In this document: one piece after another, positions 33,467 to 49,832 of the stretch | Layout: each line of letters starts with the position of its first letter | Position numbering within the stretch: position 1 is the first letter of the stretch | Origin: Thermoplasmata archaeon | Lineage (GTDB): Archaea > Thermoplasmatota > Thermoplasmata > Lutacidiplasmatales > UBA184 | Assembly (NCBI GenBank): GCA_035625085.1 | Contig: DASPQG010000078.1 | Location: forward strand, 2,151-66,150 | Direction: 5' to 3' | DNA length: 64,000 bases | Position numbers and translations under genes: made by a program | Notes under the pieces: generated by a model | Seen by the model: only the letters and a program-made list of their open reading frames with translations | Database searches by the model: none | Told to the model about the DNA's origin: nothing

Positions 33467-33474
33467 GTTAAATA
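33467..33474 (+). promoter_or_regulatory. TATA box (GTTAAATA) for the giant surface protein gene
   Basis: Located 31 nt before GTG 33499. Confidence 0.45.
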
Positions 33475-33498
33475 CCTGAACCCGACCTTTCTTCGGTC

Positions 33499-36400
33499 GT
33501 GAGTCGTTCACTGGGCCGTCCCTCTCGCTCCGGGGGAACGCGACGCCACGCCCCTGCCCGAATGTCCCAAATCTGGGTCTCGGCCGTCCTGCTGCTGGTC
33601 GTCGTCGGGTCCCTCGGATTGCTCACCGTTCTCGTCGGACCCGGCCTCGGGGCCTCGCCCGGCCCGGCGCGGTCGTCCGGAGCCTCTCCCGCGGCGGCGC
33701 CGCCGACGCACGGAGACCTCGTCGTGCCGGCCGGTCAGACCTACACGATCCAGCCGAACCTGGGGGGCAAGATCTACTACCAGGGCGGCAACATCACCGT
33801 GCAACCGGGCGGCACGTTGAACGTCTGGAACGTCACGCTCTCTTTCGTCCAGTACGTTTCGAACGTCGGGACCGCCCAGGAACGCCTATCGCACCTCTTC
33901 CAGTTCACCGATGGGGGAACCGTCAACTTCTACGACGCGAACCTGACGACCGACGTCCAGGTCCTCAACGCCTACGCGAAGCTGAATCTCACGGTCACCG
34001 GCGTCCTGAACGCCTTCAACGCCACGTTCGGTTTCCCCGGATGGATCTACGTCCACGGTAGCGGCGCCGTGATGACACTGAACGCTTCCCAGATCACCTG
34101 GAACCCCGCGGTTCAGGCGCTCAACGAGCCGCTCCCGATCTTTGGCGACACGCTCTGGGCCCCCACGATCACGGTCTCGGCCGGCGGCAACCTCACCCTC
34201 CTGGCGAGCAAGATCCTCCACCCGTACGCGGACGACACGGCGGCCTTCGGATTCGCTCGACCGACCCCGCTGTTCTTCTCGGACGCGGAAGGGTTCGCGC
34301 TGGGACCCGGCACGACCGACCTGGCCGTGAACGGCCCGTCCGACTCCGCGAACCTGTCGCTCGACTACCTCTACCCGACCGCGGGCGCCTTCAACGGCTA
34401 CATCAGCATCGAGTACCAGGGCGCCGCGAGCGGCGGGGACACGACCGTCAACATCGGCATCCTCTATGGCGGGACGAACTACCCGGTCGCCTCCGGTGTC
34501 GACTTCGCCCAGGCCTCGTCGGCGACGCTCACCTACACGTTCCCGGGGAATCTTGACCAGGCGATCACGTCGGCGGGCATGCTCCAGTACCTCAACAACA
34601 CCGGCGACTTCGGTGTCGCTGGCGAGATCGCGGTCACGGTTGACAACACCGCCGGACCGACCGCGACTGCCACCCAGGCGAGCTTCCAGCTCAACACGAC
34701 GGGGCCGAACTACAACGACCAGGTGATCGACGGGCAAGTCAACGCCGTGAACGCGGCGCTCGGTTTCAACTGGAACTCCTACAACACCACGTCGTACTCC
34801 GTGTACTCCCAGGCCATCCCGTACCCGTGGAACTCGAACAAGCTACTCTTCCTCGACCACTCGGTCGGGTACCTCGCCAATATCACCACCCCGGGCGCCC
34901 CGCTGCCGGGGGTCTTCTACGCTTCCGCCCTGCTCCCCGATAGCACGAGCGTGGTCTACACGTACCGCTGGCTGCAGTTCAACCTCACCGGCCGCGGCGG
35001 GCTGCTACCGATCCAGGGAGCGACGCTCTCGGCGTTCTACGCCTACGATTCGAACCAAGCGAACAACCTCACCGCGACGAAGCTCAACAACCTCAAGACG
35101 AGCGTGCCGGCGATTTGGGGGTACCTCCAGTACTGGGACCTCTACCACGGCGCGCCGAAGTACGGCGATTCGAACGCGGCCGGCCAAGGATTCCTGCTCC
35201 TGCTCTCGGGAAACATCACGAGCGCCTCGCTCCCCGACGGGATCTTCACGGGCACCTACCACGTGGGCATCTCCGTCCCGGCGGTCGGCGTGAAGAGCCA
35301 CTGGTTCGTCTGGTCGGTGAGCGCGTTTCCGGCCGGTGTGGCGGCTTCGAGCCTGTACTACAACGGACCCGATTTCTCACCGCCGCAAGGATTCCCCGAC
35401 TACTACGGGGCGATGACCCTCTTCTCGATGAAGGTGAGCGCGAACGGGCAGCCGCTCCCGAACCTCGGGATCGACCTCGGCCAGACGTTGACCGTCCGCG
35501 TGACCGCGAACGATTCCGGCACCGCGACGATCACGCAGGTGCGCGCGTTCCTCTACTACAACACGACCCAGCTCCCGAACGCGCTGGTGGCCCAGTACGA
35601 GAACACCGCGCTCGACCTCACGACGCCCGGACAGCAGACGTCGTTCAACCTCACCTGGGTCACGACCGACCGGGTCACCGGCCTCCACGGCTGGTTTACG
35701 CACGATATCGCAGTCGTGCTCCAGTGGAACTACAACATCTCCTCGCTCGCGGGCGGTGTGGTGAACACGACCCTCGGGGTGAACTTCGCCCCGTCGCTCA
35801 TCAAGATCACGTACTTCCAGCCGCCGCCGACAACGCTGCAGCTCACCACGTCGCCGCTCTACTTCACCAACGGAACGGTGCTCTACAACGGCACCCAGGC
35901 GGCCACGATCTTCCTCTTCGCGACGGCGCTCGGGACCACGAACGAGATCCAGATCGCGGCGAACACCACCTTCTCCGGCGCGTTCTCGCTTCCGCTCTAC
36001 GCCCTGCAGGGCTACCTCAATCCGGGGACGAGCTACACGCTCACCGTGAGCGCGGAGTACAACCACCGGTGGTTCAACTCCACCGTCCTCGGCCCGAACG
36101 GACAACCGGAAGTCTTCACGGTCCCGAAGGGTCCCACGTCTCCGGCGAGCTTCCTCTTCCAGACGTTCCTTGGACTGCCGGTCTGGCTCTGGATCGCGAT
36201 CGCGGGAGCCGCGGCCGCGGGCATCCTCTTGTTCCTCTTCTTCGCCCGCCGGCAGGCGGCCGGCAAGCTCGTCGAGTGCGGCGAGTGCGGGAATCTGATC
36301 CCCGAGGATGCCACCGTCTGTCCGAAGTGCGGTGCGGAGTTCGAGAGCGATCTCATCCGATGTAGCCGATGTGCCTCGACAATCCCGGCCGATTCGAAGT

Positions 36401-36903
36401 TCTGCCCCGAATGCGCGGCGCAACTTCTGGGTAAGCCCGGCGAGGCCGAGGCCGATCCGGAGAAGCAGGCGTACGCCGACTTCACGGGGAAGTACCGGGC
36501 GGAGGCGAAGCGCGAGCTCGGCGACAACTACACCGAGGGAGCGTTCTGGGACTGGTGGAAGCGCCAGCCGTCGTACACTCCGTTCAGCCAGTGGAGCCTC
36601 CAGCAGGGCCAGGGCACGGCGCGCGCCGGAATGACGGCCCCGCCCACCGGCACCGAGACGACTCCCGAAGCCCCGCTCGGGCAGACTCCGCCGAAGGGCG
36701 GAGCCCCGTCGGGCTGGACCGAGGCCCAGGGCGCGGCGGCGGCCGCGGCGCCCACCAAGGCGCCCCCCCCGCCGCCGCCGACCACGACGACGGTGCCCCC
36801 GCCGGCCCCCGGCGGCGCCGGCCTCAAGGCGTGTCCAAGCTGCGGTAAGGAGATTCCGGCGGAGTATCTGGTCTGCCCGTTCTGTAACGCGGTGACCCAG
36901 TAG
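33499..36903 (+). CDS. giant surface glycoprotein with a single C-proximal TM and a cytoplasmic tail carrying three zinc ribbons
   Basis: 1134-aa ORF. GTG 33499 lies 31 nt after a GTTAAATA box (alternative ATG 33562). N-terminal anchor VSAVLLLVVVGSLGLLTVLV. About 25 N-X-S/T sequons by eye. TM at about 36175..36246. Zinc ribbons follow at 36277..36414 (double) and 36832..36885 (terminal). Confidence 0.85.
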   Translation: MSRSLGRPSRSGGTRRHAPARMSQIWVSAVLLLVVVGSLGLLTVLVGPGLGASPGPARSSGASPAAAPPTHGDLVVPAGQTYTIQPNLGGKIYYQGGNITVQPGGTLNVWNVTLSFVQYVSNVGTAQERLSHLFQFTDGGTVNFYDANLTTDVQVLNAYAKLNLTVTGVLNAFNATFGFPGWIYVHGSGAVMTLNASQITWNPAVQALNEPLPIFGDTLWAPTITVSAGGNLTLLASKILHPYADDTAAFGFARPTPLFFSDAEGFALGPGTTDLAVNGPSDSANLSLDYLYPTAGAFNGYISIEYQGAASGGDTTVNIGILYGGTNYPVASGVDFAQASSATLTYTFPGNLDQAITSAGMLQYLNNTGDFGVAGEIAVTVDNTAGPTATATQASFQLNTTGPNYNDQVIDGQVNAVNAALGFNWNSYNTTSYSVYSQAIPYPWNSNKLLFLDHSVGYLANITTPGAPLPGVFYASALLPDSTSVVYTYRWLQFNLTGRGGLLPIQGATLSAFYAYDSNQANNLTATKLNNLKTSVPAIWGYLQYWDLYHGAPKYGDSNAAGQGFLLLLSGNITSASLPDGIFTGTYHVGISVPAVGVKSHWFVWSVSAFPAGVAASSLYYNGPDFSPPQGFPDYYGAMTLFSMKVSANGQPLPNLGIDLGQTLTVRVTANDSGTATITQVRAFLYYNTTQLPNALVAQYENTALDLTTPGQQTSFNLTWVTTDRVTGLHGWFTHDIAVVLQWNYNISSLAGGVVNTTLGVNFAPSLIKITYFQPPPTTLQLTTSPLYFTNGTVLYNGTQAATIFLFATALGTTNEIQIAANTTFSGAFSLPLYALQGYLNPGTSYTLTVSAEYNHRWFNSTVLGPNGQPEVFTVPKGPTSPASFLFQTFLGLPVWLWIAIAGAAAAGILLFLFFARRQAAGKLVECGECGNLIPEDATVCPKCGAEFESDLIRCSRCASTIPADSKFCPECAAQLLGKPGEAEADPEKQAYADFTGKYRAEAKRELGDNYTEGAFWDWWKRQPSYTPFSQWSLQQGQGTARAGMTAPPTGTETTPEAPLGQTPPKGGAPSGWTEAQGAAAAAAPTKAPPPPPPTTTTVPPPAPGGAGLKACPSCGKEIPAEYLVCPFCNAVTQ

Positions 36904-46292: not shown

Positions 46293-47369
46293 GTGGCGCC
46301 ACAACCTCAGGGCCGCTTTAGGCGTTTCCTTGCGACGCGGATCGGTTGGGTCCTGCTCTACGCGCTCGCCACCCTCGTCGTCATCTTCTCGATGTACCTC
46401 AACGTGCTCATCGCCATCCCGGCGGTCCTACTCTTCGGGCTGGCGGTCCCCATCTGGTCCGGTCACAAGCGCCCCCGATACCTGGCCCTCGGTGGCGTGA
46501 TCATCGTGGTCGCGAGCGCACCGCTCGCGAACGCGCTGTTCACCCAGCTGCTCCAGACCCCCGTGGGGGCCGCGGCCTCGGGAAGCGGCGGTGTGTTCTC
46601 GAACGGCCCGCCGCTGATGCAGAACGCTACGGTCACGCCCTACACCGGCACGAAGAGCACCAACTTCACCTGGAGCGTCACCATATTTCCGGCGAACCAT
46701 CCAATCGGGAATACGACCCCGAACGAGCTCGATCTTTACATCAGCGATTGTCCCGGAGCGACTGGCAACAACTCCACGTACTGTTCTCCCGGATACACCC
46801 TGATCGTCCTCCAGAACAAGACCCTCCCGAACACCACGAGCCCGTACACGGTGACGTTCCACTACCGGATCGGGTCGAACGGCATCTGGGCGTGGCAGAT
46901 GGGGATCTGGACGGAGAACTCCACCACCAAGAAGCCGTACTTCCAGCTCCTCATCGGGGACCCCCAGTACAACGGCATCGAGGGGCCTGTCATCGGAGGC
47001 TTCTGGGTGATCTACGGCTTGGTGCTCGAGGATGCCTTCTTCGAGGACTTCCTGTTCATCGCTGCGCCGTACTTCGGGCTCCTGCTCGTCTACATGCTGT
47101 TCAAGGCGCGCGAGCGCCGGCGCAAGGAGGCCGAGCAGCGGGCTCCCGGCCCGTTGCCTCCCGCGGGCGGTGGCCCGCGCCAAGCGGAGGCGAAGGAGGC
47201 CCCCCTCCCGTCGTCGTCCGGCGGTCCTCCGGCCGCAACCGCGTCGGCCTCCTCCGAGCTCAACTGTCCGAAGTGCAACGCGGTGGTCTATGCCGGCGAG
47301 CAGACCTGCTGGAAGTGCGGTGCCCCGCTCCCGGCGACGACCGCGCCCGCCGGGAAGACCTCCAGCTGA
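46293..47369 (+). CDS. polytopic membrane glycoprotein with a cytoplasmic C-terminal zinc ribbon (hypothetical)
   Basis: 358-aa ORF (GTG start). It has N-terminal TM helices and an exposed domain with sequons (NATV, NFTW, NTTP, NNST, NKTL, NTTS, NSTT). A TM (FLFIAAPYFGLLLVYMLF) plus RERRRK follows, then CPKC-x10-CWKC at 47265..47318. Confidence 0.75.
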   Translation: MAPQPQGRFRRFLATRIGWVLLYALATLVVIFSMYLNVLIAIPAVLLFGLAVPIWSGHKRPRYLALGGVIIVVASAPLANALFTQLLQTPVGAAASGSGGVFSNGPPLMQNATVTPYTGTKSTNFTWSVTIFPANHPIGNTTPNELDLYISDCPGATGNNSTYCSPGYTLIVLQNKTLPNTTSPYTVTFHYRIGSNGIWAWQMGIWTENSTTKKPYFQLLIGDPQYNGIEGPVIGGFWVIYGLVLEDAFFEDFLFIAAPYFGLLLVYMLFKARERRRKEAEQRAPGPLPPAGGGPRQAEAKEAPLPSSSGGPPAATASASSELNCPKCNAVVYAGEQTCWKCGAPLPATTAPAGKTSS

Positions 47370-47417: not shown

Positions 47418-48995
47418 CTACGTCGCGGAGTACGTGGTGGTGTCGTAGATCCAGCCCACGATCGTGACGCCGTTATAGACGGTGAGCGTCAGGAAGAACT
47501 CGAGCGTCCCGAGGCTCGAAGGCTTCCAGCGCCCCCCGGACGGGTTGATGGTGATCGACGAGCCCTGGTTAACGGACGTGGTGCCGATCGTCCAGTGAGC
47601 CGTGCCGTTCCCCGTGTTGGAGACCCAGACCGTCCCGGAGAACGAAAGCGACGCGGGTCCGCCGAGTGCCGTGGTCCAGTTGTCCCATACCGTCACGTTG
47701 CCGTAGCCGCACGTGGGGGGTGAGCCGGTGGTGGTGCAGGTGTGCGAGGGGGGTACCTTCGTGTAGAACACGGCTCCTTGGACGTAAAGTGGAGTGGCAA
47801 TGGTAAGCGACCCGCTCGCCGAACCCACTCCGGTGATCGTGGCCGAGACGTTCACCCAGACCGACGAGTTCAGGAGCCACGAGGAGAACGACCCACCGCC
47901 CGGCCAGATCGCGTAGACCGTCATGGTCGACGGCCCCGAGATTTTGAGGGGTTGCGCCGGCCCGGTGAGCGGGGTCGAGGTCTTGGAGTGCGCCGTGAAC
48001 GGGGCGTGAGGAGTTTGGTTCACCCAGAAGGAGACGTTGAGGGCGGCGTTGGTCAAGGTGCCGGTATACGTAATCACCGCCGCGAAGTAGTCCGCCCCGA
48101 TGAAATTCGTCGGCGGTTGCGGTACCGCCACCACCTCGACCGTGATGGGGATCCCGCCCGGATTGCTGATGATCGTGATGACGACCGTTCCGATCGCCGT
48201 CTGCCCGGTGCCATTCAGGCCCGAGGCATTGACGAATCCATAGAACGTCCCGTTCAACTTGGTCACGCCGGTGCTGACGTTGTAAATCCACTGCCCTAGA
48301 CCATTCAACGTCATCCGCTGGGGAGTGGCCGGGGCTCCCGGGACGGAACCCAGGTTGACGTACACCGAGTTCATCTTGTAGGAGCCCGTCAGCGCCGCGT
48401 AGACGACGAACGGCTGCCCGATAATCGGGGTGGATGGGACGGTGTAGGTCGACACGACCGTCGGCGGCGTGTGGAACGTCGTGCCGGGGAGAATCACGCT
48501 GAACAGCAGCTGCGATTGGGAGACAATGTAGATCGTGATGTTGCTGGCGGCCTGCGGCATCTGCGTGATGGGGAACGTCAAGGTCCAGATCTGCCCAAGG
48601 TTCCAGATCGTGGAACCGCCGGGGAGCCCGGAGGCCACCGTGTACGGGCTCTGGAACTCAGGAGCCGTCGGCTGGTTCGCGGACTTGAGGTAGATGAGCC
48701 CGCTCCCGGGAACCTGCGGTCCGGCGAGATGGACGATGCGGATCCCGGCGACCCACTTGAGCGTCCCATTCGACGGATAGAACAGCGAGGCCTGGAACTG
48801 GTTATTGTTCTGGGCCGGAGGGGAAGGGAACGTCGTGACGAACGCGAAGATCGCCGCGAAGAGGGTAACGGTCAGCGCCAGAAGAAGAATCGTCGCAATG
48901 ACGTCCGAAATCCCCCGCCCGCGTCGCTGGATTCCCCGCCGGTGGGACGAACTTGCGCGCCACCGGCTCCGCATGCCTGCCATGGATCGAATCAC
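47418..48995 (-). CDS. large secreted protein with an archaeal type IV pilin-like (class III) signal peptide (Pilin_N/DUF1628-like)
   Basis: 525-aa ORF (GTG 48995; alternative ATGs at 48983 and 48974). It has RRGRG-ISDVIATILLLALTVTLFAAIFAFV near the N-terminus. About 13 N-X-S/T sequons by eye, and Thr/Gly/Val-rich beta-type sequence. Confidence 0.8.
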   Translation of the reverse strand: MIRSMAGMRSRWRASSSHRRGIQRRGRGISDVIATILLLALTVTLFAAIFAFVTTFPSPPAQNNNQFQASLFYPSNGTLKWVAGIRIVHLAGPQVPGSGLIYLKSANQPTAPEFQSPYTVASGLPGGSTIWNLGQIWTLTFPITQMPQAASNITIYIVSQSQLLFSVILPGTTFHTPPTVVSTYTVPSTPIIGQPFVVYAALTGSYKMNSVYVNLGSVPGAPATPQRMTLNGLGQWIYNVSTGVTKLNGTFYGFVNASGLNGTGQTAIGTVVITIISNPGGIPITVEVVAVPQPPTNFIGADYFAAVITYTGTLTNAALNVSFWVNQTPHAPFTAHSKTSTPLTGPAQPLKISGPSTMTVYAIWPGGGSFSSWLLNSSVWVNVSATITGVGSASGSLTIATPLYVQGAVFYTKVPPSHTCTTTGSPPTCGYGNVTVWDNWTTALGGPASLSFSGTVWVSNTGNGTAHWTIGTTSVNQGSSITINPSGGRWKPSSLGTLEFFLTLTVYNGVTIVGWIYDTTTYSAT

Positions 48996-49175
48996 GGTGA
49001 TGGGGCTGCGCCCGAATACCGCTGTAAAGAGGTGGGAGGGCTCTATTTAGTCGTTATCGTCCGTCCTCGTCCTCCCGACCCCGGACGGCTCGCGTCGGAC
49101 TCCCCGCGAGAGCTGCGGACAACACTGGCGGCTCGGCACCGAACTTGCGAGGAGCACGCCGCCTGTTTGGGATTC

Positions 49176-49224
49176 GGAGAAAAGAATCAGGAAAAGGTTG
49201 GACCCTCCCGCTCTCGCGGGAGGG
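49176..49224 (-). terminator. hairpin plus U-tracts downstream of the small pilin-like gene
   Basis: The minus strand reads CCCTCCCGC-GAGA-GCGGGAGGG (9-bp stem, 49203..49224). It is followed by TCCAACCTTTTCCTGATTCTTTTCTCC. Confidence 0.5.
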
Positions 49225-49247
49225 TTGGTACGACTCCGTCCGCTCCC

Positions 49248-49832
49248 TTACTGGAAGCTGTTCGACGGCACCGTGCCGCTGTAGCCGTTCACGCCGATCG
49301 CGACGAGCTGGAAGCCGAACAGACCGGAAGCGTGCGTTGGCGCGACCTGAATGACGATGGTGAACCCACCGCCGATCGTTCCCGCAAACGTTCCCAAGTT
49401 CGTCCACGCCGAAGTGTTCGTGTTGTACGACGCGACGGGTCCGGTTCCCACGGACGGGCTGATCAGCTTCACGGCGTCGGACGCTGTCACCCAGGGAATC
49501 GTCGCCCCGAGCGTGTTCCGCAGCGCCAGCTGGAAGTTCGACGTGCCGACACCGCCACCGGCTCCCGCGATCTCAATGCTGTAGCAGTACGAGGCGGTCG
49601 CCGACGTGCATCCCGTGGTCGTCGACCCCGTGATGTTGAACGGCGTTCCCCACGAGAAGTTCGTTCCCAGGGGCGCCGATCCCGTACCGTGCGTCAGCCC
49701 CGAGATCAGCACATAGAGCACGGCGGCCAGCACGACCGTAATCGCCACGAGCAAGATCGTAGCGATGATCGGCGACACTCCGCGCTTCCGCGCCTTTCTC
49801 CAGCTTCGTTCGTTCTTTCCGAAGACGTTCAT
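49248..49832 (-). CDS. archaeal type IV pilin-like protein (Pilin_N/DUF1628-like)
   Basis: Track ORF 49248..50105 trimmed to ATG 49832, with GGAGG 8 nt upstream. Sequence starts MNVFGKNERSWRKARKRG-VSPIIATILLVAITVVLAAVLYVLISG. The mature part of about 170 aa has sequons. Confidence 0.85.
   Translation of the reverse strand: MNVFGKNERSWRKARKRGVSPIIATILLVAITVVLAAVLYVLISGLTHGTGSAPLGTNFSWGTPFNITGSTTTGCTSATASYCYSIEIAGAGGGVGTSNFQLALRNTLGATIPWVTASDAVKLISPSVGTGPVASYNTNTSAWTNLGTFAGTIGGGFTIVIQVAPTHASGLFGFQLVAIGVNGYSGTVPSNSFQ

Follow-up and report, generated by a model that had tools for sequence, protein, structure and literature searches.

The gene considered here lies at 33499..36903 of a 64,000-nucleotide stretch of DNA (termed the window) from a Thermoplasmata archaeon of the order Lutacidiplasmatales (GenBank assembly GCA_035625085.1, contig DASPQG010000078.1, positions 2,151 to 66,150 of the forward strand) and encodes a protein of 1134 amino acids with a large ectodomain, one transmembrane (TM) helix and a tail containing zinc ribbons; all coordinates of the window given below refer to the forward strand. 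We propose that the protein would be a bitopic adaptor, docking a PilB3-type pilus-like machine to a surface glycoprotein. Binding is deduced from comparative genomics, and a probability of about 45% is assigned to this reading. The observations upon which it is built are the architecture, the indicators of topology, the pattern of conservation, the single-copy status, the synteny, and the co-occurrence and frequent adjacency with a locus encoding two ATPases.

According to this proposal, an N-glycosylated bitopic surface protein would carry a beta-solenoid head on a stalk of immunoglobulin (Ig)-like domains, and its tail would act as a docking module, in which a juxtamembrane double zinc ribbon is followed by a three-helix Trp-rich domain, by a conserved linear motif and, on a flexible arm, by a terminal ribbon. 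The partner would be a type IV pilus-like machine that contains two T2SSE ATPases as well as two T2SSF platform proteins, and the tail would bind to this machine on its cytoplasmic side. The protein would in this way couple the machine to a large surface structure, perhaps as an anchor or stator, perhaps as an adhesin positioned at the machine. Bitopic adaptors of the GspL, PilM-PilN and ArlX types hold a T2SSE-type ATPase with their cytoplasmic part, and their outer part meets extracellular structures. They may serve as a working analogy in logic only; there is no similarity of sequence or fold, and the outer part is here a glycoprotein of about 840 amino acids. A bolder version of the proposal should be taken as tentative and rather doubtful, namely that the tail is the missing bitopic adaptor of an archaeal two-ATPase type IV filament machine, which clamps the motors to a giant outer glycoprotein as stator or anchor in cells perhaps devoid of a rigid wall, and which is encoded by a stand-alone core gene in Lutacidiplasmatales-like soil archaea. 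Since the module follows one particular pilus-type machine, it is a testable candidate for the link between the cell surface and the motors on the cytoplasmic side of an archaeal type IV filament system. These Thermoplasmata of soil and peat are abundant and uncultured; the paper founding the Lutacidiplasmatales makes no mention of their envelope or surface machines.

A hydropathy scan revealed two hydrophobic segments only, in agreement with an earlier note on this DNA, which had claimed an N-terminal anchor or signal and a single TM helix. An Arg-rich N-terminal cytoplasmic segment (aa 1–23, 33499..33567), with seven Arg before the first hydrophobic segment, precedes a signal anchor or long signal peptide (aa 24–50, 33568..33648; hydropathy up to 2.7). 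The TM helix (aa 890–916, 36166..36246), which has values of 95–98 for the predicted local distance difference test (pLDDT) in a model of the tail alone, is followed by RRQAAGK. About 25 sequons had been estimated by eye in a giant ectodomain; exactly 25 N-X-S/T sites (X not P) were counted, and 24 of these are located in the ectodomain (aa 51–890); 2000 shuffles of this region gave an expectation of 10.9 ± 2.9, and the value of 24 was attained in none. The density of sequons is 2.2 per 100 amino acids, compared to a genome mean of 0.31, and sites N98, N195, N366, N461, N523 and N797 are nearly invariant in 101 homologues. A gene for an STT3/AglB oligosaccharyltransferase is present in the genome. 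The 840-aa ectodomain is free of Cys; all 12 Cys residues occur in the 218-aa tail. Since the positive-inside rule, the distribution of sequons and the distribution of Cys agree, the ectodomain is predicted to be outside and the ribbons inside the cell, as had been claimed; both ends would be in the cytoplasm if the first segment is kept, and the protein would be of type I if it is cleaved.

Several side observations pertain to these features. The only STT3/AglB homologue (contig C77:19349-25933) forms the N-terminal part of a 2194-aa open reading frame (ORF) with 39 sequons, an unusually long fusion. A class III (pilin-type) signal peptide was considered and rejected, the motif [KR]-[GA] being missing here (the sequence is ...APARMSQ/IWVSAV) and inconsistent over the orthologues; RG or HG stands right before the first hydrophobic helix in about 20 of about 50 complete orthologues, and members of this genus have MSQ, MSK or similar residues. 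A search of this assembly, which is 91% complete, did not reveal the prepilin peptidase PF01478.

The tail starts with a double zinc ribbon (aa 925–975, 36271..36423; pLDDT 81–87), located about 10 residues past the membrane. Its four CxxC motifs, CGEC, CPKC, CSRC and CPEC, begin at nucleotides 36277, 36319, 36361 and 36403, with 10 residues between successive motifs. Pfam models Zn_Ribbon_1 (PF13240) and DZR (PF12773) matched the whole protein with 47.7 bits (cut-off 25) and 42.3 bits (cut-off 27.3), respectively, and the tail alone with 55.8 and 48.2 bits. The C-terminal zinc ribbon LKACPSCGKEIPAEYLVCPFCNAVTQ (36823..36903; pLDDT about 92), which is followed by the stop codon, contains CPSC and CPFC, beginning at nucleotides 36832 and 36874 (CxxC-x10-CxxC, ending at 36885); on this piece alone Zn_Ribbon_1 was matched with E = 2e-5. 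Of the three regularly spaced ribbons announced earlier, all three are present; the regular spacing did not hold, two ribbons being adjacent (DZR) and one terminal. All 12 Cys are invariant in the 101 homologues, so the conservation of Cys spacing in orthologues could be confirmed.

Beyond the double ribbon, the Trp-rich segment and the Pro/Thr linker of the earlier note were both recovered. The former corresponds to a three-helix Trp-rich domain (aa 985–1040, 36451..36618; pLDDT 96–97) with the signature F-x2-W-W-x3-P-x7-W, for which no Pfam family and no fold match in the PDB at E ≤ 0.001 were obtained. F1016, W1019 and W1020 are invariant, also when distant relatives are included, and P1024 and W1032 are conserved to at least 90% in 15 distant tails. 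A linear motif, QWSLQQGQGTARAGMTAPP (aa 1031–1049, 36589..36645), is predicted as coil and was recognized from its conservation in the 101 homologues, with Q1035, Q1036, R1042, M1045, P1048 and P1049 being invariant; pLDDT drops to about 71 and then to 47 over aa 1034–1053. The coil segment QQGQGTARAGMTAPP is almost invariant, yet modelled with low to moderate confidence, which is typical of a docking peptide. It is followed by a flexible linker rich in Pro, Ala and Gly (aa 1050–1108, 36646..36822; pLDDT < 50), which is of variable length. The model of the tail alone was based on a more diverse alignment, built from 44 loci; a comparison of the tail with the PDB by Foldseek yielded no match at E ≤ 0.001. 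Single ribbons could be superposed at about 1 Å on small ribbons of the protein-binding kind (NZF, RanBP2-type, archaeal ArnA) as well as on ribosomal ribbons.

Mean identities against 100 homologues were determined for each region. Values of 35–57% were obtained for five parts of the ectodomain, 58% for the TM helix, 93% for the double ribbon, 76% for the helical part, 83% for the Trp-rich part together with the following motif, 47% for the linker and 85% for the terminal ribbon. The tail is about as conserved as the neighbouring enzyme AhcY over 45 syntenic loci (species-level genomes). The tail is under much stronger constraint than the ectodomain, and its far better conservation fits the former suggestion of a cytoplasmic partner. 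Because the tail is about 10 residues away from the inner membrane face, nearly invariant, without an enzymatic domain and equipped with a disordered invariant peptide, it is read here as a docking module. The tail defines a new small helical domain and provides a context for generic annotations such as "zinc ribbon domain-containing".

Zinc ribbons occur also in RPABC4, Spt4 and TFB, hence the JGI family label "RPABC4/Spt4", and one may think of outside-in signalling or of nucleic-acid tethering, where the ribbons would sequester a transcription factor or a part of RNA polymerase, or bind DNA or RNA, upon events at the ectodomain. In distant relatives the ribbons are followed by Lys-rich VVKK repeats, which might bind polyanions; these repeats are missing here, the label reflects ribbon similarity only, and a single rigid TM helix would be a poor transmitter of conformational signals. 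In addition, Pfam detected no enzymatic or known signalling domain in the tail, and such a function is considered improbable.

Variation of the tail was noticed among its relatives. Distant relatives possess a third zinc ribbon in place of the linear motif, right after the helical domain, and certain relatives carry both this post-helical ribbon and the terminal one. Intermediate relatives at loci L061 and L064 and protein P0244 have four ribbons, i.e., the double ribbon, the post-helical third and the terminal one, and the four-ribbon relative at L064 has, in addition, ahcY-gcvH downstream. These intermediates hint at the origin of the present three-ribbon form.

The distribution of the module was explored with a scan of 1.8 billion representative proteins, made without a profile, and with separate six-frame searches of genomes. 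In the scan, many different proteins, large ones of 900–2800 amino acids, were found to end in the TM helix with its tail; the module-bearing ORFs from the six-frame searches were likewise large, mostly about 1200–2800 amino acids, and were present across the class. The ectodomains of all five distant tail-bearing relatives which were scanned with Pfam contained CARDB domains (2–9 repeats). The full module (ribbons plus helical domain) was detected in 93 of the 121 genomes of the class which were sampled, and is a single-copy feature of almost every genome having it. Additional weak matches in the genomes were to ribbon-only proteins, and outside the class the matches were confined to the double ribbon. 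A second tail-bearing gene was sought in this assembly and not found; a complete-looking genome of the same genus has also only one. A zinc ribbon is present in about 17 membrane proteins of this genome, and therefore the combination of TM helix and ribbon is a general theme and not special; the complete tail module is the specific feature.

The relation to the pilus-like machine was tested in several ways. By tblastn with the T2SSE ATPases of this genome, both ATPase genes were found directly downstream of 16 distant tail-bearing genes, in convergent orientation. In a first, phylum-wide sample, the module was present in 19 genomes of the same class outside the own family (f1), and exactly those 19 possessed two ATPase matches (E ≤ 1e-68); in 19 of 19 cases the module and the ATPases were on the same contig, 1–3 kb apart and convergent. 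The co-bearing genomes included only 2 of 48 from family f2 and 1 of 5 from family f8, and family f4 has neither feature. A second sample, comprising the 121 genomes of the class, showed both features in 90 genomes, neither in 26, the tail only in 3 and the ATPases only in 2. The contrasts within families f2 and f8 argue for joint gain or loss. In roughly half of the 90 co-bearing genomes the features are neighbours in convergent orientation, within 10 kb of each other; in several families, including those of the own order, they are unlinked.

Within the own family, both features were present in 7 of the 9 genomes of the first sample and in 8 of the 11 of the second, on different contigs. Each of these genomes has one tail-bearing gene, which is an orthologue of the present gene in those checked. 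A genome of the same genus, consisting of 20 contigs, contains a pilin-like gene followed by genes for T2SSE (PilB3_C), T2SSF, T2SSF and T2SSE, beyond which the genes are unrelated; the present gene's orthologue is the one tail-bearing gene of that genome. In this assembly the PilB3-type locus is divided between two contigs, C36 and C75 (C36:8424-12486 and C75:1-3235), and the contig ends bear near-identical copies of a T2SSF-like gene, which suggests strain heterogeneity or a break of the assembly. The genes of this split locus are among those with the highest codon-adaptation values of the genome.

Several points weigh against the proposed adaptor. Five genomes of the second sample have one feature without the other; all five are drafts, four of them with 90–230 contigs (two of these being 75–83% complete) and one, G474, with 7 contigs and a completeness of 93%. 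Related genomes are not independent observations, and the ATPase threshold of 1e-62 was chosen after a clear gap in the scores had emerged. The gene of the own family is situated among housekeeping genes and not beside the pilus locus, so that the link in this family is one of co-occurrence. Two strong tail-bearing genes, neither of which adjoins the ATPases, are present in the sister family f51; about 4 kb upstream of ATPase1 there is, in addition, a weak third match resembling the tail (31% identity, E 1.9e-9). Copy number and linkage are thus fluid. Finally, the matches of the ribbons in the PDB are generic and non-significant (best E = 0.48).

The co-occurrence data bear also on a role as a division-ring anchor, which would make the tail work like CdpC of haloarchaea and tie FtsZ filaments to the membrane and an outer structure. 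CdpC (HVO_0399, DUF7093) is a membrane anchor of FtsZ1 in Haloferax volcanii, its ribbons being essential and FtsZ1 being bound by the terminal one (bioRxiv 10.64898/2026.07.16.738847). Its layout follows the same logic as the present tail, with a ribbon at the membrane, a linker which is disordered, and a ribbon at the C-terminus; distant multi-ribbon relatives of CdpC are reported from all classes of Thermoplasmatota (same reference), and four genes of the tubulin/FtsZ family are contained in this genome. However, CdpC is attached by an N-terminal amphipathic helix and has neither an ectodomain nor a TM helix, by which the present protein is attached. The DUF7093 model was not among the 25 best of 32 Pfam families matching the tail at E ≤ 10, nor did it match the whole protein at E ≤ 1. 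Tubulin/FtsZ homologues occur in 117 of the 121 genomes of the class, including 12 of 12 genomes of family f2 without the tail, so there is no specific co-occurrence, and the tail does not follow FtsZ in its distribution over genomes. No ftsZ or sepF gene adjoins the present gene. The division-ring function is therefore judged quite unlikely, and the FtsZ-like and bactofilin-like partners put forward in the earlier note found no support, the comparison having covered the FtsZ-like one; the genomic data point instead to the two-ATPase machine.

The gene itself is genuine. The same architecture recurs in more than 200 full-length homologues, certain ones on contigs of up to 1.7 Mb, and an assembly chimera of two ORFs, which had been named as a concern, is excluded by these comparisons. 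All named homologues and nearly all records are from Thermoplasmata of soil, peat and sediment metagenomes, with Candidatus Lutacidiplasmatales and acid-soil isolates of that order among the record titles. The gene is located between a zinc-type alcohol dehydrogenase gene (adh) and ahcY-gcvH in 45 of 45 orthologous loci, wherever the flanks were available, and this placement persists even when identity of the ectodomain is down to about 30%. It is a real core gene, present as a single copy in this assembly of 1.77 Mb. Its immediate neighbourhood consists of housekeeping enzymes and gives no functional clue.

The ectodomain (aa 69–880, 33703..36138) was modelled with AlphaFold2, using the 101 homologues, with pLDDT > 90 for aa 70–880. 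The modelled order is a beta-solenoid-like part (aa 70–250), beta-sandwiches (258–400), a mixed beta/helical part (407–620) and two beta-sandwiches (639–874) similar to Ig or macroglobulin (MG) domains. Triplets of short strands at aa about 70–235 (AlphaFold2/DSSP, pLDDT > 90) fit a beta-solenoid; an N-terminal parallel beta-helix had been suspected, with which these strand triplets of the model are consistent, and in Pfam no family was matched in the ectodomain, beta-helix models included. A Foldseek search of the whole model against the PDB yielded generic MG/Ig arrays only (alpha-2-macroglobulin, C3, mastigoneme) with TM-scores of 0.16 or less, and when the family profile was used to search PDB sequences, no significant match was obtained, the top one being a fimbrial subunit with E = 0.005. 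No NCBIfam match was obtained for the protein, and no CARDB match with Pfam. From the model, the ectodomain looks like a rigid stalk of Ig-like domains with a solenoid head, and it has no specific known relative.

Such an ectodomain, being large, rigid in the model, Cys-free and heavily sequon-bearing, with sequons that are conserved, would suit also a structural coat protein, i.e., the main membrane-anchored S-layer-like or glycocalyx glycoprotein, whose tail would be used for self-assembly or for binding of a membrane skeleton, with ribbons cross-linking neighbours. The presence of STT3/AglB in the genome and the character of a core, single-copy and syntenic gene with its own promoter (see below) agree with this notion, and the position of the terminal ribbon on a flexible arm of 60 amino acids, as compared to the directly post-helical ribbon of relatives, is compatible with contacts in trans. 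On the other hand, the genome encodes at least 15 other large sequon-rich proteins, one of them with 64 sequons, and codon adaptation places the present gene no higher than the upper fifth (rank 218 of 1288); this estimate is rough, since two of the six reference ORFs are probably mis-framed. A coat function would also leave unexplained why the module is absent from all sampled genomes without the two-ATPase locus, the three tail-only genomes being exceptions. It is considered unlikely. In view of the number of large sequon-rich proteins, the present protein need not be the main coat protein. The ORF with 64 sequons (contig C40:16370-21070; 1566 amino acids) has 4.1 sequons per 100 amino acids, the densest of the genome, and by its composition would be a better candidate for the main envelope glycoprotein.

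Proteins of a related kind have been listed among the accessory parts of archaeal type IV pilus (T4P) loci by Makarova, Koonin and Albers (2016, PMC4858521), namely TM-anchored "S-layer-like" proteins on the one hand and proteins with a Zn ribbon or a double Zn ribbon on the other. The S-layer-like proteins possess, as does the protein described here, a signal sequence, a secreted ectodomain which is large and rich in beta structure, and one TM helix at the C-terminal end. It is the distant relatives sharing the tail, and not this gene, which are encoded beside T2SSE and T2SSF. No long conserved cytoplasmic tail has been described for the S-layer-like proteins, whereas in the present case the 218-aa module of ribbons and helical domain is the best conserved part. 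The Zn-ribbon membrane proteins arCOG07264 (N-terminal Zn ribbon, in bindosome loci of Sulfolobus) and arCOG06883 (double Zn ribbon, in Thaumarchaea) are likewise tied to T4P-like machines (PMC4858521); by their description, they are from other lineages and have other architectures. A search of the literature found no description of this architecture. The known kind would therefore be a TM-anchored archaeal surface protein linked to T4P systems, and new would be the class-wide cytoplasmic module, which is here relocated to a housekeeping neighbourhood.

The GTG at 33499..33501 is the same in 26 of 26 aligned orthologous loci. The lengths of indels 3' of this codon are divisible by three, and an open frame is kept in all 26 loci; certain orthologues have no alternative start ahead of the membrane segment. 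For these reasons, GTG at 33499 is the start of the gene. A TATA box (TTAAATA, 33468..33474) is located 25 nt upstream of the start codon, a fixed spacing which is kept in the 26 loci and from which it follows that the mRNA is probably leaderless or nearly so. Public gene calls often use ATG at 33562, and many records are consequently short by at least 21 residues; the results on start codon and promoter correct the gene model of public databases. A short inverted repeat extends over the start codon (33490-33510), with the sequence CGGTC-GTG-GACCG in several of the orthologues and CGCTC-GT-GAGCG in further ones; it may be an operator or initiator element at the DNA level.

A hairpin was identified in the early coding region (33519..33537) by RNAalifold and covariation analysis of the 26 loci. 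It is situated about 19 to 39 nt into the coding region, i.e., within the first 40 nt, and is formed by a 5' arm TCCCTC (33519..33524, CCUCC-like), a loop of 7 nt and a 3' arm GGGGGA (33532..33537, GGAGG-like). Compensatory changes were present at four of the six pairs. The covariation score was 0.45, compared to 0.26 in shuffles (0 of 500 reached 0.45) and to 0.24 or less in slid controls; the fold stability of the window's own sequence is ordinary (z = 0.73), and Rfam contained no match for the hairpin. A cytoplasmic peptide motif, PSRSGG, near the N-terminus was considered and rejected, since the arms covary and the amino acids change along with them; the apparent motif is the translation of this RNA hairpin.

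A second membrane protein with a zinc ribbon is encoded in the window at 46293..47369, where recurrence of the layout of TM helix followed by CxxC-x10-CxxC had been reported. The layout is indeed found there, as CPKC-x10-CWKC at the C-terminus, which may be seen together with the common occurrence of TM helices and ribbons in this genome. The product is an unrelated membrane glycoprotein of 358 amino acids outside the tail module family, with four TM segments, 8 sequons in an exposed loop and a cytoplasmic C-terminal ribbon, which is preceded by KARERRRK. Its gene keeps its place after apgM in relatives and is convergent with a pair of pilin-like genes at 47418-49832, the 525-aa product of which matches Pfam Pilin_N.

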